From the NCBI GenBank assembly GCA_964451495.1, contig CAYVHS010000003.1, forward strand, positions 24,826-88,825: 64,000 nt of DNA. The letters run 5' to 3'. The DNA comes from an uncultured Bdellovibrionales bacterium. Its GTDB lineage: Bacteria; Patescibacteriota; Minisyncoccia; Moranbacterales; UBA1568. Both the position numbers and the translations under genes were made by a program. The notes below the pieces were generated by a model, which was not told the origin of the DNA, searched no databases, and saw only the letters and a list, made by a program, of their open reading frames with translations. Below are positions 676-52,559 of this stretch, piece by piece. How positions within the stretch are numbered: the first letter of the stretch is position 1; each line of letters begins with the position of its first letter.

Positions 676-1053
676 CTATGCCGGGAGATTACTCTTCACT
701 TTATTGATAACTTCCTGAATTGGGATATTCGCCTTGACGAGATATTCTGCAGCTCCGAGATGGAGAACTCTCTTAATATCCTCTTCTTGGCTCAGATTGG
801 ACAATACGATGACTTTAATATCTTTCAAAACTGGATCAGACTTGAGTTCGGCCAGGGTCTCAAATCCATCCTTGCCAGGCATAATCAAATCGAGTAAAAC
901 AAGTGCTGGCTTGCGAATCCGGGCTAATTTTATAGCTTCATTGCCGTTGCCCACTATCTCGGCATGAATATTTTCTTTGGCAAGTTTTGTCTTGTAAATC
1001 TTGGAATAAAACGGGTCATCCTCCACTACCAAGACAAATTTTTCTTCGATCAT
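676..1053 (-). CDS. Single-domain response regulator (CheY-like receiver)
   Basis: 125 aa. VLVVEDDPFY..., LVLLDLIMPGKDGFETL (phospho-acceptor Asp), KVIVLSNL and a Lys near the C-terminus are canonical receiver-domain landmarks. Confidence 0.85.
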   Translation of the reverse strand: MIEEKFVLVVEDDPFYSKIYKTKLAKENIHAEIVGNGNEAIKLARIRKPALVLLDLIMPGKDGFETLAELKSDPVLKDIKVIVLSNLSQEEDIKRVLHLGAAEYLVKANIPIQEVINKVKSNLPA

Positions 1054-1106
1054 ACCAAATTAAAATTAGATATTATCAATTGTTTCTACTATAGACACGC
1101 TTCTGA

Positions 1107-4708: not shown

Positions 4709-4819
4709 ATAGTATTTTTATGTGTTTTACTTTCCCTACTCTCCTTGGCATACAGGACGAACGACATAATTATATCACAGAACCAGAAACACACTGATCA
4801 AGAGTCCGAAGCTCAGCCC

Positions 4820-5112: not shown

Positions 5113-7252
5113 CACTATTGTACTCACTGTAGCATTGATATATTTCATCGCGCTCTTTGCTATCGCGCTCTTCGTGGAAAAAAAGAGTAGCAAAGGATTT
5201 CTTTTCACCCACAACTCTATTATTTATACGCTCACCCTGGGAATATACGCGACCGCATGGACATTTTATGGATCGATTGGCTCTGCAGCAAGCTCGAGCT
5301 TTCTCTTCCTTAGTGTGTATATCGGTCCAACACTCATGATGATTTTGGCTTATGCGATGCTTAAACGACTTGTCCAGATTAAAAGCAAATATGGCATAAC
5401 GAGTATTGCAGGCTACCTTTCCAATCGTTACGGAAAATCACAGGCGGTCGGGGTGATAGCCACACTTATCGCCCTCATCGGAGGCGTCCCTTACTTTGCG
5501 CTCCAAATCAAAGCCGTAGTGTCTTCATATACCTTTATCACCATCGGTACAACGACCGCGGTACATGGCTCTATCGAACTCCTTATCCTTTTCACCATTA
5601 TTATTTTTACCATTTTCTTTGGTTTTCGCACGCTCAGCCAAGATGAGACACATTCCGGACTCGTAATGGTTGTGGCAATACAGTCAATCGTGAAACTGAT
5701 AGCACTAGTCGGAGTCGGATTACTTGCCGTCTATTTTGTCTTCCATGGATTCGGAGACATTTTCGATACCGTTCGACAAAATGCCGACCTCCTCGAAAAA
5801 ATTAATAAATCAAAACCCTCCTATTCACTCTTCCTCTCATACTTCATCCTCTCGATGGGCGCTATCGTCCTTCTGCCACACATGTTTCATGTCATGATTG
5901 TGGAAAATACCTCAGAAAAACACATTCGAAGCAGCGTATGGATGCTCCCTATCTATCTTATCGCAATGACCATCTTTACCTTTCCTATCGCCATGGTAGG
6001 CATACTTCTCACAAAAGACGTTACGCTCACGGATATATTTACCCTGGCTATACCAGCAATACGGGGAAATGCTTGGCTCACACTCCTCGTCTTTATCGGC
6101 GGACTTTCTGCCGCATTTAGCATGATTATGATCTCGACCATTGCCATTACCACCATGGTGACCAATCATCTCGTGATTCCCATTATCAACTCAATCAAAC
6201 CGCTTACATGGATACAAAAGTTTATCCTTCAAATTCGCTGGCTCATTGTCACTCTCATCCTCGGCATCGCCTATCTTTTCGTCATTTCTATCGGGGATTC
6301 ATATATTCTCGTCCAAATAGGCATTATATCTTTCGCTGCGGCATTTCAATTCGGACCCGCTCTTATCGGCGGAATTTTTTGGCAACGAGGGAGTCGTATC
6401 GGCGCATTGGTCGGTCTGTGGAGCGGATTTGCAGTCTGGATATATACATCACTCGTCCCTGCCTTTGTACGAAGCGGTTGGATAGGACAATCTCTGCTCG
6501 ATAATGGCCCCCTAGGCATAAGCTTCCTTCGACCAGAAAATCTTTTTGGTATCACTACGATTCACCCCCTCGCAGTCACGGTACTCTTCTCTCTTCTCCT
6601 CAATGCCGGCCTCTACATCATATGCTCATACTTCTATCCCAATAATGAGACCGAACAAAAAATCGCCGATGATTTCGTTCATATTCTCGAAGAAAAGGCT
6701 TTCACTCTCGAAAACGCAGGCTACCAGAAATCGACCATACTAGTTGCACATAAAAAAGAAATTATTCAGAACATATTCAAAACGTATTTGAGCAAAGATG
6801 AAGCCCCTAGACAAGCACAAGATTGCCTGCGAGAGCTCAATCTCGATAGCGCTGAAACAATGACGCTGAGCCAACTCATACAACTGAACCGCGTGATAGA
6901 GAAAAGGATTGCTAGCTTCGTCGGCACCCCAACCGCGAGTACCATCCTCTCTCAAAACAGCCTTTTTAGCGAGAATGAGAACGCGCAACTCTCAGATATG
7001 TATACGAGGATTGCGACAGACCTAAAAATCACCCCTGAAGAATTCACACAAAAAATAAATTATTTCCTCGACAAAGAAAAAATTCTCATCGATGGAAGCA
7101 AAGCGCTGGAAGAAAAAGTGAAAGAACGCACCATGAAACTCGAAGAAGCTAACAATCAACTACAAGAATTCAATACGCTGATGGTTGGACGTGAACTCAA
7201 AATGATTGAGCTCAAGAAAGAAATCGATGATTTGAAGGCTCAAAAACAATAA
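5102..7252 (+). CDS. Solute:sodium symporter (SSS) family membrane domain fused to a ~230-aa cytoplasmic tail with an S-helix-like coiled coil; no kinase domain
   Basis: ORF 5063..7252 trimmed to ATG 5102 (MIPSTIVLTV...). About 13 TM helices follow, with SSS-like composition (GSIGSAASSSFLFLSVYIGPTLMM...). The C-terminus reads ...KVKERTMKLEEANNQLQEFNTLMVGRELKMIELKKEIDDLKAQKQ, where ERT..L..AN..LQ is an S-helix-type motif. Confidence 0.75.
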   Translation: MIPSTIVLTVALIYFIALFAIALFVEKKSSKGFLFTHNSIIYTLTLGIYATAWTFYGSIGSAASSSFLFLSVYIGPTLMMILAYAMLKRLVQIKSKYGITSIAGYLSNRYGKSQAVGVIATLIALIGGVPYFALQIKAVVSSYTFITIGTTTAVHGSIELLILFTIIIFTIFFGFRTLSQDETHSGLVMVVAIQSIVKLIALVGVGLLAVYFVFHGFGDIFDTVRQNADLLEKINKSKPSYSLFLSYFILSMGAIVLLPHMFHVMIVENTSEKHIRSSVWMLPIYLIAMTIFTFPIAMVGILLTKDVTLTDIFTLAIPAIRGNAWLTLLVFIGGLSAAFSMIMISTIAITTMVTNHLVIPIINSIKPLTWIQKFILQIRWLIVTLILGIAYLFVISIGDSYILVQIGIISFAAAFQFGPALIGGIFWQRGSRIGALVGLWSGFAVWIYTSLVPAFVRSGWIGQSLLDNGPLGISFLRPENLFGITTIHPLAVTVLFSLLLNAGLYIICSYFYPNNETEQKIADDFVHILEEKAFTLENAGYQKSTILVAHKKEIIQNIFKTYLSKDEAPRQAQDCLRELNLDSAETMTLSQLIQLNRVIEKRIASFVGTPTASTILSQNSLFSENENAQLSDMYTRIATDLKITPEEFTQKINYFLDKEKILIDGSKALEEKVKERTMKLEEANNQLQEFNTLMVGRELKMIELKKEIDDLKAQKQ

Positions 7253-9791: not shown

Positions 9792-10595
9792 CTACCTGAA
9801 CTCCTTGTAGAGAAAGGTTATCCCAAACACAGCCAGCATAATCAGCACGATGGTGCCTCCCGTTGACAGATTGAGGAAAAACGAGACGAAAATTCCTGAA
9901 AGAACAGAAAAAAATGAGATTGCTTCTGCCACTATGATTGTTTTTGCAAAACTCGTCCGCCACTGGAGCGCCGTCACCACTGGAATCACGATAAGCGCCG
10001 CGATGAGTAGTACGCCCACTATCGGAATAGCCAGAGACACAGTCAGCGCGGACAAAACGATGAGCACGGTATTCACGAGACGAGTCGGGATACCACTCAC
10101 ACGAGCCGCTTCTTCATCAAAAGTCACATACACGAGCTCTTTATAGAACAAGGAGAGGAGTACTGCCACTATTATTGCAAGCGTACTAATCACATACACG
10201 TCAGTCATCGTAACCGTCACGATACTCCCGAACAGATAATTGAAGAGATTTGTATTAAATCCATGTGCAAGAGAAAGAAGGACAACAGCGAGGGCGAGAC
10301 TCCCCGAAAGGAAAAGCGCGAGGGCTGATTCTCCATAAATTTTCTTTGAATTCCGGAGTCGCTCGATACCGAGCGAGGCGAGCACTGTCGTAGCGAGAGC
10401 AGCAAACACTGGCGGAATCCCAAGTAAAATGCCTATAGCAATACCAGCTAAAGACACGTGGGAAAGCGTATCAGCAATCAGCGAGTATCTGCGTAGCACA
10501 AGAAACATACCGATAAGCGGCGCGATAAAGGCGACGATAGCCCCTGCTTCGAGTCCTCGAATGATGAATCCGTATTGAAAAATATCCGTAAGCAT
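9792..10595 (-). CDS. ABC-3 family metal (Zn/Mn) ABC transporter permease (ZnuB-like)
   Basis: 267 aa with 8-9 TM helices and composition typical of ZnuB/MntB permeases. It sits in an operon with an ABC ATPase, a TroA/ZnuA-like binding protein and a Fur-family regulator. Confidence 0.8.
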   Translation of the reverse strand: MLTDIFQYGFIIRGLEAGAIVAFIAPLIGMFLVLRRYSLIADTLSHVSLAGIAIGILLGIPPVFAALATTVLASLGIERLRNSKKIYGESALALFLSGSLALAVVLLSLAHGFNTNLFNYLFGSIVTVTMTDVYVISTLAIIVAVLLSLFYKELVYVTFDEEAARVSGIPTRLVNTVLIVLSALTVSLAIPIVGVLLIAALIVIPVVTALQWRTSFAKTIIVAEAISFFSVLSGIFVSFFLNLSTGGTIVLIMLAVFGITFLYKEFR

Positions 10596-10598
10596 ATG

Positions 10599-11345
10599 TT
10601 ATTCGTTATACCCGCTACCTTTTTTCGCCACCTGAGTCTTGAGATATTCTCCTGGCTCTGTGTAACACGTCAGTGTCCGATCGACACAGATGATATGCAT
10701 CACCTCACGCGTCACCCGGGCGATATCATGAGACACGAGAATCAGCGTCAGATCGAGATCACTATTTAACTTCCGGAGCAACGCATAAAAATCATCCTGC
10801 GTCTCGCGGTCAACACCCGTCGTCGGCTCATCCATGAAAATAACTTCGGGCTGACTCGCAAGTGCGCGTGCGATAAATACCCGTTGTTGTTGTCCTCCCG
10901 AAAGATCTCCGATCAATCGGTCGGCGAATGAGAGCATATCCACTTGACGCAGCGCTTTTTCTGCTTCTTCTCTATCTTCACTCGTGATACGACGAAACAA
11001 TCCTCTCTTGCCGTATCTCCCCATGAGCACTACCCCGCTTACCGTCACAGGAAAATTCACATCGAAACTGGTGGCCTTCTGTGGCACATATCCGATCTTG
11101 TCCCAATCCTTGAAATCCTTGATGTCTTTTCCGAAAAGTCGTATCAAACCTGTACTGGGCGCGAGCAACCCGAGCATGATTTTGAGCAGTGTTGTTTTGC
11201 CTGCGCCATTGGGTCCGATGAGACCGATATAATCCCCCCGATGAATCCCTAGGGTGATATCAGATAACACTTCATTTTTCCCATCATAAGAAAATGATAT
11301 CCCCTCGGCTTCAATGATATTCTTGGTATGGTCTATGCGTTGCAT
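10599..11345 (-). CDS. Metal ABC transporter ATP-binding protein (ZnuC-like)
   Basis: Walker A GPNGAGKTT, ABC signature LSGGQQQRV, Walker B IFMDEPTTGVD. Confidence 0.85.
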   Translation of the reverse strand: MQRIDHTKNIIEAEGISFSYDGKNEVLSDITLGIHRGDYIGLIGPNGAGKTTLLKIMLGLLAPSTGLIRLFGKDIKDFKDWDKIGYVPQKATSFDVNFPVTVSGVVLMGRYGKRGLFRRITSEDREEAEKALRQVDMLSFADRLIGDLSGGQQQRVFIARALASQPEVIFMDEPTTGVDRETQDDFYALLRKLNSDLDLTLILVSHDIARVTREVMHIICVDRTLTCYTEPGEYLKTQVAKKGSGYNE

Positions 11346-12274
11346 TGTAGTGCTGTTTCCAAATGAGTAAGATTCGTCATCATTTCTGTGAAATAGTCCT
11401 TGCCCTGAGATACCTCTTCATCCGTCAGTCCTTCGAGTGGATTGAGGACGAGGGTTTCAGCGCCAATTTCTTGTGCGATAGTTTCTGCAAGTTTCGGACT
11501 TACTAAAGTCTCAAAAAAAATATACTTCACCCCATTCTCCTTCGCAAACGAAGCGACGTTCGTCAGCGCCTTGGCGGATGGTTCTGTATCTGGAGAAATC
11601 CCCGCGATAGACACTTGCTCTAACCCATATGCCACTGCCAAGTGCCCAAAAGCCGCATGCGATGTGACAATCTTTCGACTTTTACAATCTGCCAAACCCT
11701 TCATATAAGCCACATCCAAATCGTGTAGTCGCTCCTGTAGCTTGGCGGCATTGTTCTCATAGTACTCTTTGTTTGCAGGATCAGCCGACGCGAATCCTTC
11801 TGCTATTTTCTCGGTCATTTTTATTACCAAAACAGGCGCGAGCCAGACATGTGGATCAGTGACAGTTTCGCCGTCCTCCATCATCTGTTCTGTCCCTAAT
11901 CCCTCGCTCGCCACGACAAGCACTGTATGCGATGAATCCATATTTTTTTTCAACGCATCTCCCCATGCTTCCAGACCCGCTCCATTCAAAATAATAAGTC
12001 GACTCTTCTCGATGTTCATCATGTCTTGTGGCGTCGGTTCGTACTCATGCGGCTCCGCCCCGGCAGGCGTCAGATTAGATACTATTGCTTTCTGCCCTCC
12101 TATCTCTCCAGCCAAAAAAGCGAGCGGATAAAAACTTGTCACTACTTCGAGCTTCTTATTGTCTGGTAAGATCTCGGTTGATTGCTGTACCGATTTACCT
12201 CGATACACAAAACCCGCTCCGATAATCCCTACCAATATCACCACTCCCACAATGAACACAAAAAATTTCTTCAT
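11333..12274 (-). CDS. Metal-binding lipoprotein/substrate-binding protein of the ZnuA/TroA family
   Basis: 313 aa with an N-terminal signal/TM. Metal-coordinating context (...DPHVWL...HAAFGHLAVAYGL...) typical of cluster-9 solute-binding proteins. It overlaps the ATPase gene by 13 nt. Confidence 0.8.
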   Translation of the reverse strand: MKKFFVFIVGVVILVGIIGAGFVYRGKSVQQSTEILPDNKKLEVVTSFYPLAFLAGEIGGQKAIVSNLTPAGAEPHEYEPTPQDMMNIEKSRLIILNGAGLEAWGDALKKNMDSSHTVLVVASEGLGTEQMMEDGETVTDPHVWLAPVLVIKMTEKIAEGFASADPANKEYYENNAAKLQERLHDLDVAYMKGLADCKSRKIVTSHAAFGHLAVAYGLEQVSIAGISPDTEPSAKALTNVASFAKENGVKYIFFETLVSPKLAETIAQEIGAETLVLNPLEGLTDEEVSQGKDYFTEMMTNLTHLETALQCNA

Positions 12275-20418: not shown

Positions 20419-22287
20419 ATGTTCAGAGAAATACCTCAAAATGTCGTTCGTCCAGAAAAAAGCCGAGATGAACTTCGGTCATTTCTTTCGGAGCGAACCA
20501 GAAAGGATTACGAAAAGACAGTTGGCCATGAAATGGCTCCGAAAGATTTCAATGTATGGGTCGTGCAGACCGAAGCGACACGGTCTCAATCTTTACATTC
20601 CGCTGATGCTCTCACCAAAGAATTTCAATTATCACTGAGTACAAATCAACAAACACTTTCTGACAATCGGGATGTGGCAGTCTCCATAGTCCCCCAAGAT
20701 GAACTTCGACATGCGCTTCCCAATGCTTTCCCGGGCTATGGTGAAGTAACCCCCAATCTTCTGCCGGACCTCGTTATCGTTTCTGGCGACGTCGGCTATC
20801 ATGACACACAGCCTGAGAGCAGTTTGACTCGTGCGTATATTAACTTTGAGATGCAGGCTATTCGTGATATCCGCCATGCCGCAGACGCAACACTTCACCA
20901 TTTCTTTCCGACCGGAGAAAAACTCACGAGCGACTGGGATCAAGAATTCCTCCAAGCACACGTCCTCGGAAAAAACTATCATGAGCTTTTTCTGAGAAAA
21001 CATGAGATTACCGAAGAAATCGCCCTCGAACTTATCGCCAGCTCGCTTTTCAATGACACCGATTACGAGTGGGAAATTTCCGGCCGAGCATTTGATACCT
21101 ATGCTCGCACCAATGATGAACACTCCCTCAGAAAAATCACCACTGACGGACGCATCCGGAAAGCGGTCAAGCAGATGCGGAGATCTTTCGTTTTGACACA
21201 CCTGGTCGAACAATATCGATCAGAAAAGAAAAAGGAATCAGGCTCAGGAGAATTTCAAAACGAGGAAGAGTATATCGCCTATGTACAAGCGCTGGTCCGA
21301 AAAACCGAGTCCACCGCAAAAGACATTGACCCCGAACAATTACAGACCGCGGTCTATGCCTCGCTGAAAAAATTGATCGATGCAAAAAAACAAGACTATC
21401 TCACGGATGTCGAAAGCGAAACCATGGAAGAGCGGCTCTTGCAGCCAATCATCGTCTCTGTCGGAAAAAGCAAGAAATACCAGGAAGCATCATTCGAAGC
21501 TGGCGCCGACGCCGTCCTTCCCGAACTCACCCCTGCAGGTATGAAAAAGGTAGTGGAGCTCGCAAAGCGTATTCGCACCAGCCCCGCCTCCATGGCGACC
21601 GAACGCCTCCGCAGAAACAAATCCGAATTCTATCATTCGGTCGTCGACCAGATCGAAGATCGATCCAAAGAGACTGCTGATACTGAAAAGGAATTGGGAA
21701 TCCTCTCATCGCTCTTCAAGAAAATTGACGCAAAAACGATCCTCGATGTCGGCTGTGGATACGGTCGTCTCGCCAAACCCTTGGCCAAAGAGGGTTTTGA
21801 TGTGACCGGCATCGATGCGAGTCAAGCGCTCCTCACGAAAGCAAAAGAAATGAAAGGGAAAACAAAAAATCTCCACTACGCCAAGGGAGATATTATCGAC
21901 TACACAGGTTCCGTTCCGAAAGAAAGTTTTGATGCTGTGTATTATGGTTGGCATTCTTTCCTCGAAGCATACGGGCTCGGCAATGCCCTTGCCTCCCTTC
22001 GATCAGCGCGCCACGCGTTGAAACCAAACGGTGTCATCACCTTTGACCAACCAGCACGCACCAACCCTGAACTGGAAGAGGGATGGTATGGCGACGCGGA
22101 ACACGGCTACCTCGCCTATCTCATGGATGAAGAGGAATTGAAATTCATGCTTCGTCTCGCGGGCTTTGAAGACGTACATATTCTTCACTGGACCACCAAG
22201 CCCAGTACCCTCTACCCCGAGGGCATGCAGAAAATATCGGTCGCCGCCCGAAAACCATCAATGCTGAAAATTAAAGAAGGATCTTGA
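20419..22287 (+). CDS. Large fusion protein: ~400-aa uncharacterised N-terminal region plus C-terminal class-I SAM-dependent methyltransferase domain
   Basis: 622 aa. The C-terminus has ILDVGCGYGRLAKPLAKEGFDVTGIDASQALL (motif I, GxGxG), DAVYYGWHSF and LKPNGVITF. The N-terminal 400 aa carry no motif I recognise. The gene looks GC-richer than the surrounding chromosome. Confidence 0.7.
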   Translation: MFREIPQNVVRPEKSRDELRSFLSERTRKDYEKTVGHEMAPKDFNVWVVQTEATRSQSLHSADALTKEFQLSLSTNQQTLSDNRDVAVSIVPQDELRHALPNAFPGYGEVTPNLLPDLVIVSGDVGYHDTQPESSLTRAYINFEMQAIRDIRHAADATLHHFFPTGEKLTSDWDQEFLQAHVLGKNYHELFLRKHEITEEIALELIASSLFNDTDYEWEISGRAFDTYARTNDEHSLRKITTDGRIRKAVKQMRRSFVLTHLVEQYRSEKKKESGSGEFQNEEEYIAYVQALVRKTESTAKDIDPEQLQTAVYASLKKLIDAKKQDYLTDVESETMEERLLQPIIVSVGKSKKYQEASFEAGADAVLPELTPAGMKKVVELAKRIRTSPASMATERLRRNKSEFYHSVVDQIEDRSKETADTEKELGILSSLFKKIDAKTILDVGCGYGRLAKPLAKEGFDVTGIDASQALLTKAKEMKGKTKNLHYAKGDIIDYTGSVPKESFDAVYYGWHSFLEAYGLGNALASLRSARHALKPNGVITFDQPARTNPELEEGWYGDAEHGYLAYLMDEEELKFMLRLAGFEDVHILHWTTKPSTLYPEGMQKISVAARKPSMLKIKEGS

Positions 22288-22315
22288 ATCCCCTCTTCCT
22301 TTTCCAAAAGACAGG

Positions 22316-22349
22316 CCAAAAAAATGAGTCTTACCATTATAGTAAGACT
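22316..22349 (-). terminator. Intrinsic terminator (perfect 9-bp stem GAGTCTTAC/GTAAGACTC), effective on the minus strand
   Basis: ccaaaaaaatgagtcttaccattatagtaagactca. The A-run on plus equals a T-run after the hairpin on minus. Confidence 0.55.
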
Positions 22350-22366
22350 CAGATACTTCACCAGCA

Positions 22367-22756
22367 TCACTCCGGACTTTTCAACAAAGCCATCGACTCA
22401 TTGATCTGGCTTTCAAGTACTCGCATTGCTTCGAGACCTCTGGTCAATTCATCGAGATGCGGACGTACCTGCTCACGCAGACAATGCTCGCCCTCGCGAA
22501 TTCCTGCTTGAAATCCGGCCAAGAAGAATTTGGCAAACATACCACGATACAATCGCGTCGAGGCAGGTCGAGTTTCAAACTTTTCCATCTCAGTCATTCC
22601 AAATGCCATGGGAAATATTCCGAGAAGCATCTCGCCTTCGCGGCAAAGTTGACGCACTTCATCTTCTTCGGATACCGTTGCAAAACACCGAACACCTTCC
22701 CTGGTAGCGCTGTCCACGACGACAGCAAAACTAAAAGCAATCGGTACATCTTTCAT
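22367..22756 (-). CDS. Small hypothetical protein (first gene of the leader-repeat cluster)
   Basis: ORF 22367..22804 trimmed to ATG 22756 (MKDVPIAFSF...), preceded by GGAGA. Leader-repeat copy 1 lies directly upstream. Confidence 0.45.
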   Translation of the reverse strand: MKDVPIAFSFAVVVDSATREGVRCFATVSEEDEVRQLCREGEMLLGIFPMAFGMTEMEKFETRPASTRLYRGMFAKFFLAGFQAGIREGEHCLREQVRPHLDELTRGLEAMRVLESQINESMALLKSPE

Positions 22757-22810
22757 GATTCTCTCCTCTGGTTGGTAAAAAACTTTTTCGATCCGAACAT
22801 TCACGATATC

Positions 22811-22884
22811 ATTTCCCTTTCACAAACTTCTTATACAAGAAATTTCTGAAAGGGAGGCGAGAGGAAATGATATTCCATCTCGCC
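22811..22884 (-). repeat. Leader-repeat copy 1: conserved two-hairpin element 5' of a minus-strand gene
   Basis: atttccctttcacaaacttcttatacaagaaatttctgaaagggaggcgagaggaaatgatattccatctcgcc. Hairpin A = CCCTTTCACAAACTTCTT / AAGAAATTTCTGAAAGGG (18-bp stem with 2 mismatches). Hairpin B = GGCGAGA...TCTCGCC. Confidence 0.7.
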
Positions 22885-23187
22885 AATAGAGTGGCTCTTT
22901 GCCGAATGTGCCCAGAATAGCAACACATCCGGCATAACATTGTGGTTCCCACAACGCTCTCCTCGGGTTTTTGTTAGCACTTCCCCAAACAGAGTCATTC
23001 ACCCACTTTAAGATCCTCAAAATATTTGAGGAGTCAAAGTAAGTGTTTGTTCATCACCACGTGTGCATCACAACGTTTCCGCTATGTGCCTCTCAACGCA
23101 GACGAACTCCCGAGGATGTGATCAAGCACCCCCTCATGCACCGGTACTACATCATTCAATAATGCTAACCCGGCATATCTCAAACTC

Positions 23188-23382
23188 TCAATAGAACCGC
23201 GGACACCCCCTATCTTTGGAAAGAAAATGCTTGATTCTCCTATGAACCGACTGAAGCTCCCCGCTCTTGAACGGCTTCCCCATCAAAATCGAGAATCTTC
23301 CAGCCGTTCCGGCATTTCCATGCCGGGTCCACACAACGATTCTCCGTCCTCGTACCGTGAGGCTCTTGTAGATATCTGGCAT
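23188..23382 (-). CDS. Small basic hypothetical protein (65 aa)
   Basis: ORF trimmed to ATG 23382 (MPDIYKSLTVRGRR...), preceded by GAGGAGAGAGAA. The longer ORF-track version begins inside the repeat at a GTG. Confidence 0.35.
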   Translation of the reverse strand: MPDIYKSLTVRGRRIVVWTRHGNAGTAGRFSILMGKPFKSGELQSVHRRIKHFLSKDRGCPRFY

Positions 23383-23390
23383 TTCTCTCT

Positions 23391-23523
23391 CCTCGTATAG
23401 ATACGGCGAAATTGCCGCGACGGTTTTCTCAAAGAACATCGGGAACCATTTCCCTTTCACAAACTTCTTACGTAAGAAATTTCTGAAAGGGAGGCGAGAG
23501 AGGAAATATTATTCCGTCTCGCC
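23391..23523 (-). repeat. Leader-repeat copy 2 (long form, shares an extra ~50-bp 5'-proximal block with copy 4)
   Basis: ...gatacggcgaaattgccgcgacggttttctcaaagaacatcgggaaccatttccctttcacaaacttcttacgtaagaaatttctgaaagggaggcgagagaggaaatattattccgtctcgcc. The same two hairpins are present; the hairpin-A loop differs (acgtaag). Confidence 0.7.
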
Positions 23524-23533
23524 AAAAACTACT

Positions 23534-23998
23534 TCACGATTTGTTTACAATGTCGAGGAGCCGACCCAGAACGACTGGCCAATCTTTCACCCACGCGCCG
23601 TCAATCTCTTTCATCGGCGCATACATGAAGCATACGCGATGACCATTGATGTTGATTTCCTTACCGATAAGCCAATCCATCATGGCACAGGCCGGGTGAT
23701 GGTGATGATTGGTATCGGTCGCCACTGCGACTCGGATCCCCTCTGTCGCGAGATATACTGCGAGCGGATATCCGACCGCGAATGCCTCGCCGAGGTGATT
23801 CATCCCCTCACCGCCGAGCATCATCTCTTCGGCTGGCATCAGGAGATCGATCAGTGCGACATCGAACGACTCCTGCTGCACAGCCATCGCGACATCCGAA
23901 TAATCTCGAAGAACGATGACTTCATGCCCAAGAGCTGTGAGATCAGCGAGGCCAGTCTGGCAATGTCGCTTTGAGTCGTCCACCAAAAGAATCTTCAT
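23534..23998 (-). CDS. Divergent receiver (REC)-like protein with TDTNHHHHP motif
   Basis: ORF trimmed to ATG 23998 (RBS GAGGAGG). MKILLVDDSKRH...FDVALIDLLMPAEEMMLGGEG...RVAVATDTNHHHHPACAMMDW...KDWPVVLGRLL. DD, the D in LIDLLMP and a T before the His run map onto receiver-fold positions. Confidence 0.55.
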   Translation of the reverse strand: MKILLVDDSKRHCQTGLADLTALGHEVIVLRDYSDVAMAVQQESFDVALIDLLMPAEEMMLGGEGMNHLGEAFAVGYPLAVYLATEGIRVAVATDTNHHHHPACAMMDWLIGKEININGHRVCFMYAPMKEIDGAWVKDWPVVLGRLLDIVNKS

Positions 23999-24378
23999 TT
24001 CATTTCCTCCTCTACGTTGAGCAAAAAGAATACGATGTTCTGTTCTCCTGAACCTTCTACGAGCGGTCGAGTATACACACGACCAGCAAACGCTTTCGCG
24101 AGTGAGCTCGCGCCCAATCGAGTCGACTCCCCCTGCCATCCTGGCATAATCGCAATGAGCACCTTCGTCTCATCACCATCCTTCAGAAAGCGGAGTGCCT
24201 GGGACGTATCGTCCGTCAGCAGAAGCTCGGCCTCATCCGACGAATTCACAATCTGAATCATGGAATTCATTTCCATGATCGCCTTCAGCGCGATCTCGAT
24301 CGGATTCTTCAGCACGATCTCAATCGGATTGGTCGAACGACGCTCCGAACCCCCTATACTCACAAAAATCTTCATCAT
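23995..24378 (-). CDS. Small hypothetical protein with an in-frame 24-bp tandem duplication; translationally coupled to the downstream REC-like gene
   Basis: 127 aa (MMKIFVSIGG...NPIEIVLKNPIEIALKAI...). Its stop TGA overlaps the next gene's ATG (ATGA at 23995..23998). RBS AAGGAG. Confidence 0.5.
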   Translation of the reverse strand: MMKIFVSIGGSERRSTNPIEIVLKNPIEIALKAIMEMNSMIQIVNSSDEAELLLTDDTSQALRFLKDGDETKVLIAIMPGWQGESTRLGASSLAKAFAGRVYTRPLVEGSGEQNIVFFLLNVEEEMK

Positions 24379-24403
24379 CTACTCCTTTGTCAAATGAACT
24401 CAA

Positions 24404-24481
24404 GGGAAATCCCCTTTCACAAACTTCTTACATAAGAAATTTCTGAAAGGGAGGCGAGAGGAAATGATATTCCGTCTCGCC
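24404..24481 (-). repeat. Leader-repeat copy 3
   Basis: gggaaatcccctttcacaaacttcttacataagaaatttctgaaagggaggcgagaggaaatgatattccgtctcgcc. Confidence 0.7.
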
Positions 24482-24488
24482 ATGAACG

Positions 24489-24887
24489 CTACTCCTGAAG
24501 CTTGGCGATGATCGCGGCGAATTGCTCCGGCTTTTTGTTAGTCAATTCCGGCTCCATCGGCTCCACCACACCAGCTGCCTCGAAGTTTTTCAACCCCGAA
24601 GATGAGTGCGAATAGATTGGGCCAATGTAGCCAAATGACCGGAGAACCGAGACAATCAGAGCGCCCGTGATTCCCTGCGGGATCGGGTACTCCGCATCGT
24701 CAAACTGCCAATCGACAAAGATCGCGTCCGGCGTGATTTCAAGTGCTTGCTCGACTGCTTGCGAGACACTGTCGATCTGCCAAACAATATTCACTTCGTG
24801 GGCAGTCGGATCGAAACCGCATTGTCTTGCTAAAAACAACATAATATCGACTTCGCCTTTTTGATCATCGATTATTGCGATTTTCAT
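24489..24887 (-). CDS. Small divergent REC-like/unknown protein
   Basis: ORF trimmed to ATG 24887 (RBS AAGGAGAGAG). MKIAIIDDQKGEV...PDAIFVDWQF...IYSHSS gives a weak receiver-fold pattern. Confidence 0.45.
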   Translation of the reverse strand: MKIAIIDDQKGEVDIMLFLARQCGFDPTAHEVNIVWQIDSVSQAVEQALEITPDAIFVDWQFDDAEYPIPQGITGALIVSVLRSFGYIGPIYSHSSSGLKNFEAAGVVEPMEPELTNKKPEQFAAIIAKLQE

Positions 24888-24992
24888 TTCTCTCTCCTTG
24901 ATTAAAAGAACTTCATCTCGATGAAAATTCAAACTATTTTGAATCCTCAATAGAGAGGAGAAGCGGTGTGTTCACGACTTCTCCGAATTACC

Positions 24993-25373
24993 TTACTCCA
25001 ACCTTTTGGCAAGCAGCTCGCGCAAGACGAGGGTCGGACAACTCTCGAGGACGCCTTCCCAATCTGGGATATCCATCCAAGAGTCGCCATCGTCGCCAGA
25101 GTCGAAGTGGTAAAGGAATGTAAGTGAGATTTTCCCGTCCCTGATCAGATTCCTCATCAATGTCATGAAGATCATGTGGGACTTCTCATCACTATTGTAG
25201 TCACACTCTTCAAATGCTTCCCATTCTTCTTCGTATCCTTCCACCTTGAACGTTACGCCCTCCCGAGACCATTCTAGATCCTTCCCAAAACAGAAGTGCA
25301 GAATGTCTTTACCGACTTCCAACACAACACTGGCTGGGATGAAAGCTACATATTGATTGTATGAGGTGCTCAT
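24993..25373 (-). CDS. Small acidic hypothetical protein
   Basis: ORF trimmed to ATG 25373 (MSTSYNQYVAF...), RBS AAGGAGAGAGAA. Leader-repeat copy 4 lies immediately upstream. Confidence 0.45.
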   Translation of the reverse strand: MSTSYNQYVAFIPASVVLEVGKDILHFCFGKDLEWSREGVTFKVEGYEEEWEAFEECDYNSDEKSHMIFMTLMRNLIRDGKISLTFLYHFDSGDDGDSWMDIPDWEGVLESCPTLVLRELLAKRLE

Positions 25374-25387
25374 TTCTCTCTCCTTTG

Positions 25388-25520
25388 GTAGATACGGCGA
25401 AATTGCCACGACGGTTTTGTCAAAGAACTAGGGAAACTATTTCCCTTTCACAAACTTCTTGCGTAAGAAATTTCTGAAAAGGAGGTGTGTACAGTAACTG
25501 CCTGTACACACCAAACCATT
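25388..25520 (-). repeat. Leader-repeat copy 4 (long form); hairpin B replaced by a covarying perfect 11-bp stem
   Basis: gtagatacggcgaaattgccacgacggttttgtcaaagaactagggaaactatttccctttcacaaacttcttgcgtaagaaatttctgaaaaggaggtgtgtacagtaactgcctgtacacacc. Hairpin A is conserved. Hairpin B is GGTGTGTACAG/CTGTACACACC instead of GGCGAGA/TCTCGCC. Confidence 0.7.
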
Positions 25521-25575
25521 AAAGAACAACTCAAGGACTAGGGTAGAAAAATTCTTCTACCCCAGCCGAGAAACA

Positions 25576-26247
25576 TTACTCGGCTTCTTCTTCTGGGTTG
25601 AGGAGCCGGCCCAAAATCTTGAGCCAGTCCTTGCCCTTAGAACGGAAGTCAGTCCCAGAGCCTTTGCAGGGCCAACAATTGGCCGTCAGCCCGTTTATAT
25701 TTCTTTTTCCGGCCCCATTACACTCCGCACACGGCCCCTCAGTTCCGACAATACCAACCTTTTGAACACTGTTGGTCATGAGCACCTGAGCGCCGTCGAT
25801 AGAGAAGACATGCCCGTCGAAAGCATCAAGCATGGCCGACGCGGGGTGATGATGGTGATTCATATCCGTCACCACCGCCACATGTTTTGCACCCATTTTT
25901 GCTGCATGAAGTGCAAGCGACCAGCCAACCGCCATTTCCTGACCGACATACTTCCTCCCTGCACCGCCTTGAGACATGGAACCAGCGGGCATCAGGAGGT
26001 CTGTGAGAACTACGTCCCAGTAGGGAAGTTCAGACTCATCTCGTGCCTTAATGTATGCCTCCCGAGCTTTCATTCCATCCCGCTCGTACTGCTCTTCGAG
26101 GGCCTTCCGATTGGGGGCGTACTGCGTACCAAGCAGCTGATATGCCTCATCATGGCTCGAGCAAACGGTAAGGTCATGCTCTTTGCCCAGGAGCTGAATC
26201 GCTGCATCAAGATGGACTTGCGTGTCGTCGATGACAAGAACCTTCAT
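25576..26247 (-). CDS. Divergent REC-like protein with TDMNHHHHP motif and a C-terminal DnaJ-type CxxCxGxG zinc-ribbon insert
   Basis: ORF trimmed to ATG 26247 (MKVLVIDDTQVHL...DVVLTDLLMPAGSMSQGGAG...HVAVVTDMNHHHHPASAMLDAF...CAECNGAGKRNINGLTANCWPCKGSG...KDWLKILGRLL). It is a paralog of 23534..23998. Confidence 0.55.
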   Translation of the reverse strand: MKVLVIDDTQVHLDAAIQLLGKEHDLTVCSSHDEAYQLLGTQYAPNRKALEEQYERDGMKAREAYIKARDESELPYWDVVLTDLLMPAGSMSQGGAGRKYVGQEMAVGWSLALHAAKMGAKHVAVVTDMNHHHHPASAMLDAFDGHVFSIDGAQVLMTNSVQKVGIVGTEGPCAECNGAGKRNINGLTANCWPCKGSGTDFRSKGKDWLKILGRLLNPEEEAE

Positions 26248-26306
26248 TTTCTTCTCCAACCCCAGTGCCCGAGGTGCGGTTGCCAGTATTGGCAGATTTC
26301 TCAAAG

Positions 26307-26320
26307 AACTTGTACAAGTT
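26307..26320. promoter_or_regulatory. Perfect 14-bp palindrome AACTTGTACAAGTT in the divergent region between the REC-like cluster and the TrmB-family regulator (operator candidate)
   Basis: tctcaaagaacttgtacaagttgttttg. The upstream half, tctcaaagaac, also occurs in the long leader repeats 2 and 4. Confidence 0.35.
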
Positions 26321-26452
26321 GTTTTGTGTCTCTGCTCTTCAACTTGACTGCGTAGTATACCTTGTTTTGAGTAAAGTGTCAATAATAAGGTCAATATATC
26401 GTCAATAGTAAACGCGATACGAACCGAGTACTTTCATTTTTTGGCTTTATTA

Positions 26453-26481
26453 TTGACTTTTATTTCATTTTCTGATATACT
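26453..26481 (+). promoter_or_regulatory. Candidate sigma70 promoter for the TrmB-family gene: TTGACT - 17 nt - TATACT
   Basis: ttattgacttttatttcattttctgatatactcat. Ideal 17-nt spacing, 50 nt upstream of ATG 26531. Confidence 0.45.
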
Positions 26482-26530
26482 CATATTATCGACCTTTTTA
26501 CCGACATATTTAAAATATCACTGAAAAAAC

Positions 26531-27262
26531 ATGCTTTTTCAAGACTTACAGCAATTTGGATTGAGCGAAAAGGAGGCTCGGGTCTATATGGCCCTGCTTG
26601 AGATTGGCGAAGCCTCTGTGGGACACATAACCCAGAAATCCGGCGTAAAACGCACCACCGTCTATGATGTAATAGAAGATTTGAAAGCATCCGGCCTCGT
26701 CGGTATGATAAAAAAAGAAAAGAAGACCCTGTATTTCGCCGAAGACCCCCGCTCTCTCGAAGGAAAGCTCGAAGAAAAAAAGGAAAGCCTAAAACGAATG
26801 CTTCCCGAACTCCTTTCTATTGCCAACTTCCTTGATAAAAAGCCAAAAATTCGATTTTACGAAGGCAAGGAAGGTATCAAGGAGGTGTACAAAGATACGC
26901 TCCAATATCCCGATCAAGAACTCCTGGCTTGGGTAGCGGAAGAAGCTATCGAGGCATTCGACGAGGCATTTCTCAACGCATACTATCTCCCCCGTCGTGT
27001 GGAAAAAAAGATTTGGGTCCGCGCTATCGCCCCCGATGTCCCACTCATGCAGCAGTATAAGGGTCAAGATGTCCCCTCGCTCCGGAAAACCCGTCTCATC
27101 GATGCCAAGCGCTTCCCCCTCGATGCCGAAATCAATCTCTACGGGAGAAACAAAATCGCCATCATGTCCTTTTCCGAACAGACCAGCCTCATCATCGAGA
27201 GCGAAAAAATATTTCGTACTCTCAAAAGTATTTTCGAGTGCCAATGGGAAAGCCTGGCATAA
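26531..27262 (+). CDS. TrmB-family transcriptional regulator
   Basis: 243 aa. LQQFGLSEKEARVYMALLEIGEASVGHITQKSGVKRTTVYDVIEDLKASGLV is the TrmB N-terminal wHTH, with a C-terminal sensing domain. Confidence 0.75.
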   Translation: MLFQDLQQFGLSEKEARVYMALLEIGEASVGHITQKSGVKRTTVYDVIEDLKASGLVGMIKKEKKTLYFAEDPRSLEGKLEEKKESLKRMLPELLSIANFLDKKPKIRFYEGKEGIKEVYKDTLQYPDQELLAWVAEEAIEAFDEAFLNAYYLPRRVEKKIWVRAIAPDVPLMQQYKGQDVPSLRKTRLIDAKRFPLDAEINLYGRNKIAIMSFSEQTSLIIESEKIFRTLKSIFECQWESLA

Positions 27263-30355: not shown

Positions 30356-30628
30356 ATGCCGATCAAAAAAGCAGCCATCAAGTACATGCGCGTTACTGCG
30401 AAAAATACGCTCCGCAACAAGATCGTGACGGGTGTCGTGAAAAGCGCCGTCAAGAAGACTCGTGAAGCCGTTGCTACCGGAAAAATTGCTGATGCCCAAG
30501 ACGAACTGAAAAAGGCCATCAAAGCGATCGACAAAGCAGCCCAGAAAAAGGTCATCAAGAAAAACACCGCTGCTCGCAAGAAGTCCCGCCTAAACGCTCT
30601 CGTCAAGAAAGCCGCAGCAAAGAAATAG
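30356..30628 (+). CDS. rpsT: 30S ribosomal protein S20
   Basis: 90 aa. MPIKKAAIKYMRVTAKNTLRNK..., Lys/Ala-rich and typical of S20. Confidence 0.9.
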   Translation: MPIKKAAIKYMRVTAKNTLRNKIVTGVVKSAVKKTREAVATGKIADAQDELKKAIKAIDKAAQKKVIKKNTAARKKSRLNALVKKAAAKK

Positions 30629-30650
30629 TCTTCGCCTACTGTATACAATA

Positions 30651-30679
30651 AAACCTCCCACAAGGGAGGTTTTTGTTTT
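30651..30679 (+). terminator. Intrinsic terminator after rpsT (CCTCCC-acaa-GGGAGG + TTTTTGTTTT)
   Basis: aaaacctcccacaagggaggtttttgtttt. Confidence 0.7.
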
Positions 30680-30729
30680 GAAAATTCTGTTTTTATTTCT
30701 CCAAAAAAGGAAAGGGGCTCAAAAATATT

Positions 30730-39218: not shown

Positions 39219-42200
39219 ATGGTCAAGATTACTCACGGAGACATATCGCCCTCTGATGAAAAAAACAAACAAGCAGATGATCTCCTCCAAAAAATGCGCT
39301 CCGTCTCTATCGAAGAGACGGCTTCACGGTTGGCAGGCATGTGCGGTCTCCCTTATATTGATCTCGCTCTTTTCCCCGTTGAAGAAGAAAGCCTTTCGCT
39401 TATCAACGAGGCCGATGCGAGGCATCTAGGATTGGCTCTTTTCCAAAAAAAATCTACCAGGGCGAGCTTTGCCATCCTTGATCCAAACAACAAGGAAACT
39501 CTAGAATTTATCACAAAAGTCGCCCAAGAAAGGGGCTGGGAAGTAGAACTCTATGTCGTTTCGATACCGGCTCTCGAGGCAGCGTGGAAGACTTATTCCA
39601 AACATACGTTTATTGATAGCCTCGATCTCGTCCGCGTTTCACTCAAAGGCGATGATCTCGAAACATTTGATAAAAATTTTGGAGAACTTCTAGAATTAAA
39701 AGAAAATCATCGACTTAATACTTCTCGAGCCACAGAAATTATTCTCGCTGGAGCCAAGAAGCTTGACGCGAGTGATATTCATATCGAACCAGAAGAAGAG
39801 AGGGCTCGCCTGCGCTATCGTATCGATGGCGTACTCCAAGATATCGGCATGCTCCCGCTCGCCGTGTACCGACTCCTCCTGTCTCGTATCAAAATGATAG
39901 GCAAGATGCGCCTCAACGTCAGAGATAGAGCTCAGGATGGTCACTTCTTCGTCAATCTCGATGAAAAGCGCATCGATATCCGCGTCAACAGCATCCCCGG
40001 CAAATACGGCGAAAGCATCAACATGCGTCTTCTCTCAAGCGATGATGTTATTGCTGATATCGACAGTCTCGGTCTACGTGGTCTGGCCCGTGAAGAAATC
40101 CTCAAAGAAGTCGAGCGGCCTCACGGCATGATCCTCAATACCGGCCCGACCGGGTCTGGAAAAACAACTACTCTCTACACGCTCCTCCATCACATCAATC
40201 GTCCCGGGACAAAGATTATTACGGTCGAGGATCCAATCGAATATTCATTGCCCGGTATCGTCCAGACAGAAGTGTCCAAAGACAAATCATACACATTTGC
40301 TACCGCGCTCCGTGCCATCGTCCGTCAAGATCCAGATGTTCTCCTCGTCGGAGAAATCCGTGATGACGAAACTGCTGATATTGCCGTCAATGCCGCCCTC
40401 ACTGGGCATCTCGTCCTCTCAACGCTCCATGCTAATGGCGCTCCCGCTGCTGTTCCACGACTTATCGAGCTCGGTGTCAAACCATCGCTCATCACCGCCT
40501 CACTCAATATCATCATCGCTCAGCGCCTCGTCCGCGTGCTGTGTAAAAAATGTCGCACATCATACGAGCCAGCCAAATCGACATTCGATGTCATCACCAA
40601 GCTCATCACTATCATCTCTCCGAAAGCAAACGTGACACTGCCCAAAAAGATCGATGTCCTCTGGAAGGCCACGGGGTGCGCGGAATGCCACTTTACCGGC
40701 TACAAAGGACGTATCGGCATCTTCGAGATATTCTCTCTCTCCAAAGAAATCATCGAGATCATCAACAACATGGGTAATGAGCGTGAGATTCTCAAGGCCG
40801 CTCTCGAAGGCGGTATGGTCACCATGACACAAGACGGAATCCTCAAAACACTCGAGGGAATTACGACGCTCGATGAAATCTGGCGCGTCACCGACCAAGT
40901 AGATATGCTCAAAGAAATCTTCCTCGAACTCATGTCTGGTGATCTGCAGCGCACGCTCTTCATTCCAGAGAATCTCTCTTCTGATGTAGCGAAACACCTC
41001 TCTTCGCTCACCGAATTCTCACGCTATGCCAATACTATCGATTCACAGTTACGGTTTCAATCGATTTTCTCTGCGGCTATCGTCTCACGCGCTGGCGATA
41101 TCCATATCGAACCAGGAAACGAAACGTTCAGCGTCCGATTCCGCATCGATGGCATTCTTCAGAACGCTGCCACGTTTCCGATAAATGACTACCCGAGTCT
41201 CATCAGTGAGATAAAGACGCTCGTCGGACTCAAGATCGGTGAACGAGCTGGGGTGACCGATAAGCGTTTCTCTGTCACTCTCGAAAAGTCTCCCGATGCC
41301 GGCGTAAGCGAGAGGATAGATATCCGCCTCTCCCTTATCCCTGGAGGATTCGGCGAGACCATCGTTATGCGACTCCTCAATCAATCAGCCACAACGCTTG
41401 ATCTAGAAACACTCGATATCCGCAAACAAAACATCGAAAAAATTCTCGCCTCTATAAAAAAACCACACGGTATCATCCTTAATACTGGTCCTACTGGATC
41501 TGGAAAAACGACGACGCTCTACAGCACTCTCTCGCTACTCAATAAACCTGAAGTGAAAATCATCACCGTCGAAGATCCAATCGAATATCAGATGCAAGGT
41601 GTCCTCCAGACTCAAGTAAACGAAGCCGAGGGGTACACGTTCTCGACTGCTCTCCGCTCTCTCCTCCGTCAAAACCCAGATATCCTCATGATTGGCGAAA
41701 TCCGCGATGATGAGACAGCACAAATCGCCATCCAATCCGCCAATACGGGGCACCTCGTCCTCTCGACGCTCCATACCAATTCTGCAGCCGGCACCATTCC
41801 TCGTCTCATGAAAATGGGCGTTTCTGGTGATGACCTCGCCAATGCCGGAGGATCACTCATCGCGCAGCGACTCGTCCGCAGACTCTGCAAAGAATGCAAG
41901 GAATTGGCGCCTCTATCAGATGAGGATGCCCAGAAGATTACACAAACCCTCGCATCTCTTTCAGAAAAAGCAGGTGTCACTCTACCCACAGACAAACAGA
42001 CAGCATGGATACACAAAGGCTGCCCTGTCTGCCATGGCACCGGCTATTCCGGCCAACTAGTCCTCTCCGAAGTGATTCCGCTCGATAATGATATCAAAGA
42101 CCTCATCGCCAGAGGAGCCCTCACTCACGAGATCGAAGAAAAAGCTCTCGAAAATGGGATGATCACCATCGCGCAAGATGGTGTGCTCGCAGTACTCGAG

Positions 42201-42245
42201 GGACGCACCACTCTCGAGGAAGTAAAGCGCGTAACTGATTTCTAA
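39219..42245 (+). CDS. GspE/PilB-family secretion ATPase with two tandem complete ATPase cores (1008 aa)
   Basis: An N-terminal GSPII_E_N-like domain, then two repeats each with ASDIHIEP...RIDGVLQ, Walker A LNTGPTGSGKTTTLY, Asp box, Walker B/His box (LVGEIRD...LVLSTLH) and a tetra-Cys motif (CKKC...CAEC and CKEC...CPVC). Confidence 0.85.
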   Translation: MVKITHGDISPSDEKNKQADDLLQKMRSVSIEETASRLAGMCGLPYIDLALFPVEEESLSLINEADARHLGLALFQKKSTRASFAILDPNNKETLEFITKVAQERGWEVELYVVSIPALEAAWKTYSKHTFIDSLDLVRVSLKGDDLETFDKNFGELLELKENHRLNTSRATEIILAGAKKLDASDIHIEPEEERARLRYRIDGVLQDIGMLPLAVYRLLLSRIKMIGKMRLNVRDRAQDGHFFVNLDEKRIDIRVNSIPGKYGESINMRLLSSDDVIADIDSLGLRGLAREEILKEVERPHGMILNTGPTGSGKTTTLYTLLHHINRPGTKIITVEDPIEYSLPGIVQTEVSKDKSYTFATALRAIVRQDPDVLLVGEIRDDETADIAVNAALTGHLVLSTLHANGAPAAVPRLIELGVKPSLITASLNIIIAQRLVRVLCKKCRTSYEPAKSTFDVITKLITIISPKANVTLPKKIDVLWKATGCAECHFTGYKGRIGIFEIFSLSKEIIEIINNMGNEREILKAALEGGMVTMTQDGILKTLEGITTLDEIWRVTDQVDMLKEIFLELMSGDLQRTLFIPENLSSDVAKHLSSLTEFSRYANTIDSQLRFQSIFSAAIVSRAGDIHIEPGNETFSVRFRIDGILQNAATFPINDYPSLISEIKTLVGLKIGERAGVTDKRFSVTLEKSPDAGVSERIDIRLSLIPGGFGETIVMRLLNQSATTLDLETLDIRKQNIEKILASIKKPHGIILNTGPTGSGKTTTLYSTLSLLNKPEVKIITVEDPIEYQMQGVLQTQVNEAEGYTFSTALRSLLRQNPDILMIGEIRDDETAQIAIQSANTGHLVLSTLHTNSAAGTIPRLMKMGVSGDDLANAGGSLIAQRLVRRLCKECKELAPLSDEDAQKITQTLASLSEKAGVTLPTDKQTAWIHKGCPVCHGTGYSGQLVLSEVIPLDNDIKDLIARGALTHEIEEKALENGMITIAQDGVLAVLEGRTTLEEVKRVTDF

Positions 42246-52008: not shown

Positions 52009-52074
52009 ACCCTACCTAATCATGCGAAGGAGGGTGGATAATGACCACCATCTCAACTCGAGGTGTATACCGTG

Positions 52075-52362: not shown

Positions 52363-52559
52363 ACCCAGTAATGAAACTTCGACAATATTCTCTTTGTTAT
52401 TGTCGATAATTAAGCTAATATATTATTTATCAACTTCTTTTTTCATATCACTCAAGCACTCATCAAAGTTCTACTACTGGACATATTTCTATTACTACAC
52501 AAAGTGAAAATATATATTCACTTTTGAGCAAATACTTGTAAAATCAGTTAAACAAACCA

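Follow-up and report, generated by a model that had tools for sequence, protein, structure and literature searches.

The window analysed here, a stretch of 64,000 nucleotides from a Patescibacteria genome (uncultured bacterium of the Moranbacterales; assembly GCA_964451495.1, contig CAYVHS010000003.1), carries two paralogous genes, A and B, whose products appear to be strongly derived receiver proteins that keep the phospho-aspartate pocket and carry a conserved His- and Asp-rich signature. We call this family of derived CheY-like domains REC*. The reading that we favour overall, with a probability of roughly 45%, is that REC* is a derived stand-alone receiver switch with an added His/Asp site, partnered either by a small domain, Y, or by a TrmB-like protein. 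The work followed up a prediction made from the sequence alone (hereafter the original prediction), which had described A and B as paralogous receiver-like proteins with a run of four His residues directly after the conserved Thr.

The motif strings on which that prediction was built were all found in the open reading frame (ORF) list, on the minus strand and where it had placed them, and the paralogy is solid: BLASTP aligned A and B over their full length at 36% identity (E=6e-23), far beyond chance, with two additional segments in B. In B an insert of ~35 amino acids (residues 40-74) lies between α2 and β3, the acceptor Asp is D83 and the pocket Lys is K206, and the family hidden Markov model (HMM) matched the protein at E=3e-38.

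Receiver profiles recognise the first half of the domain. The Pfam model Response_reg (PF00072) scored A at 20.1 bits and B at 12.6 bits, below its cut-off of 30.2 and over model positions 1-54 only, and a few homologs pass this cut-off (for example P0173, at 40.1 bits). A family profile built from 108 homologs matched solved receivers with E-values down to 4e-7, over residues 1-56 only, and aligned Asp51 of A on the acceptor Asp of their D-x-x-M-P motif. An AlphaFold2 model of A, built on an alignment of 108 homologs, reached a predicted local distance difference test score (pLDDT) of 93.6 and a predicted TM-score (pTM) of 0.90, and contains the five-stranded parallel (βα)5 fold. Its elements are β1 (residues 2-6), α1 (10-22), β2 (26-30), α2 (33-42), β3 (47-51), a long loop that includes a short helix, α3 (76-85), β4 (89-94), a 7-residue loop (95-101), α4 (102-110), a β-meander (115-132), β5 (135-138) and α5 (140-153). 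Foldseek searches with this model returned receivers almost exclusively, with a target TM-score of about 0.7. Pfam, the profile comparison, structure prediction and Foldseek all gave receivers and no confident non-receiver fold; A and B have a receiver (CheY-like) fold, strongly derived.

The original prediction had assigned the DD pair, the acceptor Asp and the Thr to receiver pocket positions, an assignment that is upheld by the profile alignment and by conservation, and that extends to the Lys. The counts given here and below refer to the best 147 of at least 807 cluster representatives, aligned to the family HMM. The pocket of A consists of D7, D8, D51, T94 and K138, with T94 ending the strand 89-94 and K138 ending the strand 135-138; D8 is kept in 114/115 representatives, D51 in 144/145, Thr or Ser at position 94 in 146/146 and K138 in 101/103. 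All five residues are retained in >97% of the aligned representatives, and this alignment shows that the family has kept the predicted phospho-aspartate pocket. The Pro that usually follows the receiver Lys is absent, with K-(D/N)-W instead of K-P. In the model, the β3-α3 and β4-α4 loops that flank the pocket are both lengthened, and the β-meander, together with a knuckle of two CxxC pairs in B, is inserted on the α4-β5 side.

The four-His run itself did not survive as a conserved unit. What the family conserves is the longer signature (T/S)-D-x-N-H-H-x-(H/D)-P-x-S-A-x-x-D, carried on the lengthened β4-α4 loop. H98 and H99 are each present in 144/146 representatives, and position 101 holds His in 114 representatives and Asp in another 26, with D95 (125), N97 (107), P102 (135), S104 (126), A105 (133) and D108 (142) around them. 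Position 100, the third His of the run in the window, is variable (Asp in 63, Asn in 18, Ala in 16, Ser in 14 and His in 11). Since the third His varies and the flanking residues are near-invariant, the real unit is HHx(H/D) inside this longer signature. The functional weight of the run had been made to depend on the conservation of its His residues in homologs; it is the wider motif that is near-invariant and that carries this weight.

The β4-α4 loop has 3 residues in CheY against 7 in A, and the motif block has the lowest pLDDT in the core of the A model (82). We place the motif near the pocket on the strength of this long loop, the long β3-α3 loop and the low confidence of the block. A pattern of exchanges involves the acceptor-Asp loop as well. 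Among the 114 representatives with His101, position 53 (acceptor Asp +2) holds Leu, Met or Phe (His in 0/114); among the 26 with Asp101, it is polar in 23 and His in 12. Position 109 is His in 17/26 representatives with Asp101 versus 9/114 with His101. This swap looks like the migration of a ligand within one site, which would tie the motif to the acceptor-Asp loop.

Taken as a mechanism, H98, H99, the His or Asp at position 101, D95 and D108 would together make up a further site where the acid pocket opens, with a transition metal as its most likely ligand, and this site may gate, tune or replace phosphorylation of the Asp. The protein would act as a small switch, with its output passing through protein contacts on the modified α4-β5-α5 face.

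The same residues can also be read as catalytic. REC* could be a receiver-derived metal-dependent phosphohydrolase or phosphotransferase and not a switch, in which Asp51, Thr94 and Lys138 would handle the phosphoryl group as in HAD phosphatases, and the His/Asp cluster would hold a second metal or the substrate; the pattern DD...D...(D/N)HH...D recalls the DHH phosphoesterases. HAD enzymes use acidic residues together with a Thr or Ser and a Lys, and DHH enzymes bind divalent metals through Asp/His clusters at strand ends. Near-invariant polar residues are packed very densely at the C-terminal strand ends of REC*, the His-to-Asp swap is offset by a new His elsewhere, none of the best 147 representatives has a fused output domain, and identity between classes is 45-55%, high for fast-evolving genomes, all of which would suit an enzyme. 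The fold and the N-terminal profile are however those of a receiver rather than of HAD or DHH proteins, no Pfam enzyme family matches at E<=1, D-L-L-M-P is the receiver switch motif, and the neighbouring genes give no hint of a substrate pathway, and we hold an enzymatic role to be unlikely. Membership of the DHH or HAD families themselves was rejected, the fold and profile searches giving receivers only and Pfam giving no DHH match at E<=1.

The family is large. A word-indexed search returned 115 homologs of about 150 amino acids, most of them unnamed metagenome proteins, with the Patescibacteria group, Candidatus Uhrbacteria and Chlamydiae as the named sources, and an exhaustive profile search gave at least 807 clusters (50% identity) at E<=1e-10. 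We sampled 47 species-level genome loci, almost all from Patescibacteria (Moranbacteria, Uhrbacteria, Saccharibacteria, Paceibacteria and others), with a few bins labelled otherwise, and REC* is essentially restricted to this group. No curated Pfam or NCBIfam model matched the A/B family above its cut-off, a literature search found no description of it, and the PADLOC and PHROGs models gave nothing beyond generic matches, which fell on the N-terminal receiver half and on the winged helix. An origin in a defence system or a phage was considered and set aside, there being no specific PADLOC or PHROGs match and the surrounding genes being housekeeping.

Three architectures occur among the 147 representatives: 45 are short, A-type proteins, 44 carry an N-terminal Y domain of about 110-130 amino acids (~260-300 amino acids in total) and 58 are B-type proteins with internal inserts. 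The DnaJ-type zinc ribbon that had been noticed in B recurs in a B-type subfamily, two or more CxxC following the His motif in 26/58 B-type representatives (~45%) and in no A-type or Y-fused protein; at the level of loci, paired CxxC at the knuckle position were found in 9/27. In B the segment lies immediately N-terminal of β5 and scored below the Pfam cut-offs, with Anti-TRAP (E=0.0015, 19 bits against 32) ahead of DnaJ_CXXCXGXG (E=0.013, 16.2 bits against 32.7). Judged from these matches, the CxxCxGxG pair is probably a single-zinc knuckle.

Two putative partners, on which the original prediction was silent, follow the two types of REC* gene. Y lies directly upstream of 28/31 A-type genes, none of which is preceded by a TrmB-like gene, whereas none of the 27 B-type genes is preceded by Y. 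The Y protein of the window was matched by the Y-family HMM at E=4e-26, and the fused members carry a domain of this family at their N-terminus. An AlphaFold2 model of one natural fusion, P0117 (pLDDT 85, pTM 0.77), shows Y as an alpha/beta domain (5 strands, 4 helices) with a disordered linker between it and the receiver-like domain; no sequence similarity of Y to solved structures, receivers, the A family or the C family was detected. The first helix of the window copy also contains a 24-nucleotide tandem duplication (24283..24330, NPIEIVLK / NPIEIALK), which none of the Y-family sequences aligned from related loci shares.

For the B-type genes the candidate partner is a divergent gene for a TrmB-like protein, less than 1.2 kb upstream in 20/27 cases. 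The window obeys both pairings, with the TrmB-like gene divergent from B and Y before A, and the full TrmB / B / Y / A order was also found in loci L006, L008 and L024. The C-terminal ~170 residues of the TrmB-like protein have no Pfam match. A dedicated orthologous TrmB subfamily beside REC* genes was not seen in a neighbour-joining tree. In two Saccharibacteria-type loci, L049 and L038, there are several TrmB-like paralogs, each paired with a Peripla_BP_6 gene, and from these pairings the TrmB-like proteins there appear to be general local regulators. On gene order, A-type proteins would pair with the Y domain, translationally coupled here and fused in about a third of the family, and B-type proteins would be controlled by, or act together with, the divergent TrmB-like DNA-binding protein.

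These constant associations bear on another account, in which REC* is a pseudo-receiver scaffold with a permanently occluded pocket, the His/Asp cluster being a structural zinc site or the interface to Y or TrmB, with no signal of its own. Such a protein would be expected to be consistently paired or fused with another domain, as REC* is; B bears an additional zinc knuckle, predicted to be of structural type, and the receiver likeness in sequence is confined to half of the domain. Known pseudo-receivers usually lack the acceptor Asp or other pocket residues. The near-complete retention of the pocket across the aligned representatives is unlike them, and we regard a scaffold as very improbable.

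A, B and Y stand in a cluster whose genes are all on one strand, in the order B-X-C-Y-A-Z-W, and the simplest reading is that they form one seven-gene operon. This rests on one consensus promoter, one terminator and four structured intercistronic elements; the original prediction had not remarked on the layout as a single operon. On the minus strand of the cluster the sigma-70 promoter of B (11/12) is the sole strong one; B-type genes elsewhere likewise have a TTGACA-17-TAxxxT promoter in front of them, and the hairpin after W is the only canonical terminator. All the genes of the cluster would then be co-expressed from one promoter, with the four structured elements between them. X, W and Z (the minus-strand ORF between A and W) matched nothing in the family libraries (Pfam, NCBIfam, PADLOC, PHROGs) and had no homolog in the related loci.

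The shared leaders noted originally are part of a real repeated element, present in four copies of ~107 nucleotides. Read in gene sense, each copy has a GC-rich hairpin whose sequence varies, with compensatory changes at seven base pairs, then an invariant palindrome with an 18-bp stem, CCTTTCAGAAATTTCTT-N4-AAGAAGTTTGTGAAAGG, and finally the leader with its ribosome-binding site. Within the palindrome a G-G mismatch is conserved, and a U-G pair forms on the gene-sense strand only. Its core has no match in the 64-kb window beyond the four copies (chance expectation 0), and the sole further match of the covariance model in the window is marginal (30623..30708, 16.6 bits, E=0.12). No Rfam family matched in 22000..27000. 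Intergenic copies were found in the orthologous clusters of at least nine related loci (L001, L004, L006, L008, L009, L019, L023, L030 and L033), and the full-length matches in relatives all run in the same direction as the REC* genes. The element may serve in RNA processing, in partial termination or as a site for a protein. We also considered that the palindrome might be an operator preceding separate promoters, a reading that is unsupported because no sigma-70-like promoter follows the palindrome and the TTGAC(A/G) box that does follow it is present inside the transcribed leader of B as well.

The closest relative, L006, lacks between B and Y (5275..5420) the unit X-C together with one intergenic element (24386..25522 in the window), which looks like a cassette gained or lost through recombination between the repeated elements. 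C had been proposed as a third, more divergent receiver-like protein. Its five homologs are all close, its alignment shows DD, D59 in FVDW, S93 and K118-P, and hhalign related it to the A family with a probability of 69% (E=4e-5); this match covers the N-terminal half only, Pfam Response_reg was reached below threshold (E=0.029) in just 2/6 members of the C family, and a sequence search gave no match in the Protein Data Bank (PDB). C is plausibly, although weakly supported as, a receiver-like protein.

The absence of an adjacent kinase, also part of the original prediction, is correct for the cluster and does not extend to the whole window. There is no HisKA or HATPase_c domain between 8.5 and 42 kb, and the nearest kinase is ~20 kb from the cluster; at 676..4794 the window does hold a classical kinase with a stand-alone regulator, and there the ORFs of the kinase and of a CHASE4-PAS protein may be one split or frameshifted gene. 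This regulator aligns with A around D-L-x-M-P only. No kinase was found among the recurrent neighbours in 51 related loci that were clustered, these neighbours being housekeeping genes such as those for PNPase, UvrB, RuvB, the CCA-adding enzyme and XerC. With a classical kinase in the window, phosphorylation of A and B by an unlinked kinase is possible.

Such a kinase, for instance that at 1107..3167, would be needed if A and B were ordinary phospho-accepting single-domain regulators, in which the His motif binds no metal and tunes the rate of autodephosphorylation or the specificity for a partner. In CheY-type receivers the residues directly following the conserved Thr and the acceptor Asp set the phosphorylation kinetics, and in REC* all five pocket residues are conserved. 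The window has a classical kinase with a stand-alone regulator, but that regulator is canonical and lies directly downstream of its kinase, and the window has no kinase beside its REC* genes, nor does one occur among the recurrent neighbours of the related loci examined. Kinetic tuning alone would moreover leave the three or four invariant metal-type ligands and the His-to-Asp swap unexplained, and K-(D/N)-W stands in place of the canonical K-P, and ordinary regulation is in our view a doubtful alternative. REC* could also be a sensory receiver independent of any kinase, in which a transition metal (or pH or redox state) acts on the His/Asp site over the pocket and switches the domain directly; REC* would be the detachable sensor half of a split regulator completed by the TrmB-like protein (B-type) or Y (A-type), with the palindrome as the DNA or RNA target. 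We give this version little weight as well.

The favoured reading, of a derived receiver switch with an added His/Asp site, has to contend with several of the observations above. About 20 near-invariant residues surround one pocket, a pattern more typical of an enzyme, and the exchanges at positions 101, 53 and 109 probably belong to one clade and may represent a single evolutionary event. The receiver profiles match the N-terminal half only, with both A and B under the Pfam cut-off. On the side of the partners, the TrmB-like proteins adjoining REC* are not monophyletic in the neighbour-joining tree, and since they do not form one clade the link holds at family level; local regulators of the TrmB-like kind are common in these genomes, and TrmB may simply regulate B without being its partner.

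Table 1 Coordinates of the REC* cluster, its control elements and the two-component genes of the window.
Feature	Position	Strand	Description
A	23534..23998	-	Short (A-type) receiver-like protein with His motif, 154 amino acids, N-terminus MKILLVDD
A motif TDTNHHHHP, residues 94-102	23693..23719	-	End of β4 and 7-residue β4-α4 loop
B	25576..26247	-	Long (B-type) paralog, 223 amino acids, N-terminus MKVLVIDD
B motif TDMNHHHHP, residues 127-135	25843..25869	-	
B two CxxCxGxG repeats (CAECNGAG...CWPCKGSG), residues 173-198	25654..25731	-	Probable single-zinc knuckle
C	24489..24887	-	132 amino acids, N-terminus MKIAIIDD, possibly a receiver domain; D7, D8, D59, S93/S96, K118-P119
X	24993..25373	-	Acidic ORF of 126 amino acids, first gene of the X-C unit
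Y	23995..24378	-	Partner gene, 127 amino acids; stop overlaps the A start (ATGA)
W	22367..22756	-	ORF of 129 amino acids, last before the terminator
TrmB-like winged-helix regulator	26531..27262	+	243 amino acids, divergent from B; Pfam TrmB E=3.3e-17
B promoter	26354..26382	-	Consensus sigma-70, TTGACA-17-TATACT
Promoter-like site of TrmB-like gene	26453..26481	+	TTGACT-17-TATACT with extended TG
Intrinsic-terminator-like hairpin	22325..22351	-	T7 tail, directly after W; likely operon end
Intergenic element, copy 1	25416..25522	-	Between B and X; 102.5 bits (covariance model)
Intergenic element, copy 2	24386..24491	-	Between C and Y; 106 bits (covariance model)
Intergenic element, copy 3	23425..23533	-	Between A and Z; 111.3 bits (covariance model)
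Intergenic element, copy 4	22788..22894	-	Upstream of W; 105.6 bits (covariance model)
Stand-alone response regulator	676..1053	-	Canonical, 125 amino acids, directly downstream of the kinase
HAMP-PAS-HisKA-HATPase_c kinase	1107..3167	-	Overlaps the CHASE4-PAS ORF by 32 nucleotides
CHASE4-PAS protein	3136..4794	-	

The rest of the window supplied several observations in their own right. Antisense to B lies an ORF of 197 amino acids (25762..26355, plus strand), and similar ORFs opposite REC* genes cluster across eight loci; these are most likely shadow ORFs of conserved coding sequence. Convergent with the operon, and syntenic in seven related loci, is a gene for a 622-amino-acid protein (20419..22287) that ends in a class I methyltransferase domain and whose N-terminal region of ~430 amino acids is unannotated. 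A ZnuABC-type metal ABC transporter operon (9792..12274) is situated about 11 kb from the cluster, and in related loci REC* genes have a TerC gene (L001) or a cation-efflux gene (L004) nearby, cases too few for a metal link. The 1008-amino-acid product of the gene at 39219..42245 contains two T2SSE (PilB-like) ATPase stretches and seems to be a secretion or pilus ATPase duplicated in tandem; a similar gene of ~1005 amino acids lies near the REC* gene in L004. Finally, dnaA (53993..55399, minus strand) adjoins an AT-rich stretch (GC 0.33 at 52-54 kb) with a change in the sign of the GC skew, and 52000..55400 is probably the replication origin.

Patescibacteria have tiny genomes with few classical signalling systems, and their regulation is mostly uncharacterised. 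REC* is a large and tightly conserved family with no curated family model, and it is consistently paired with a partner domain or a TrmB-type protein. Binding of a metal or another ligand at the extra site would mean that a receiver domain had been turned into a direct sensor, and the family would then give a first point of entry to a conserved regulatory module of Patescibacteria; should the kinase-independent version be true, it would represent a widespread route to signal-responsive regulators in these kinase-poor, genome-reduced bacteria. If the site binds nothing, REC* would still be a well-defined new receiver subfamily with a clear annotation signature.

Among known systems, HAD and DHH phosphoesterases resemble REC* in catalytic logic and differ from it in fold, with no sequence or profile match. 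B shares its CxxCxGxG repeats with the DnaJ cysteine-rich domain and with anti-TRAP, and having two of them would suffice for a single zinc centre of the anti-TRAP kind, whereas in B they sit in a loop of a receiver-like domain, score below the cut-offs and are confined to ~45% of the B-type proteins. With the TrmB-family regulators the common ground is the TrmB N-terminal domain of the protein at 26531..27262; to our knowledge no TrmB-family protein is known to be paired with a receiver-like protein, and none was found in the literature searched. With the CheY-like single-domain regulators (PF00072) REC* shares the (βα)5 fold, the DD after β1, the Asp of D-x-x-M-P after β3, the Thr or Ser after β4, the Lys after β5 and the stand-alone form without an output domain. 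It departs from them in a β3-α3 loop longer by about 11 residues and a β4-α4 loop longer by 4, in the HHx(H/D) signature, the β-meander between α4 and β5 and the K-(D/N)-W, in a C-terminal half that receiver profiles fail to recognise, and in having no adjacent gene for a cognate kinase. Atypical and pseudo-receivers (the aspartate-less receivers, FrzS, the KaiA N-domain) likewise use a receiver fold outside a kinase-regulator pair and signal through protein contacts, but these proteins have typically lost pocket residues, whereas REC* keeps them all and adds further conserved polar residues.

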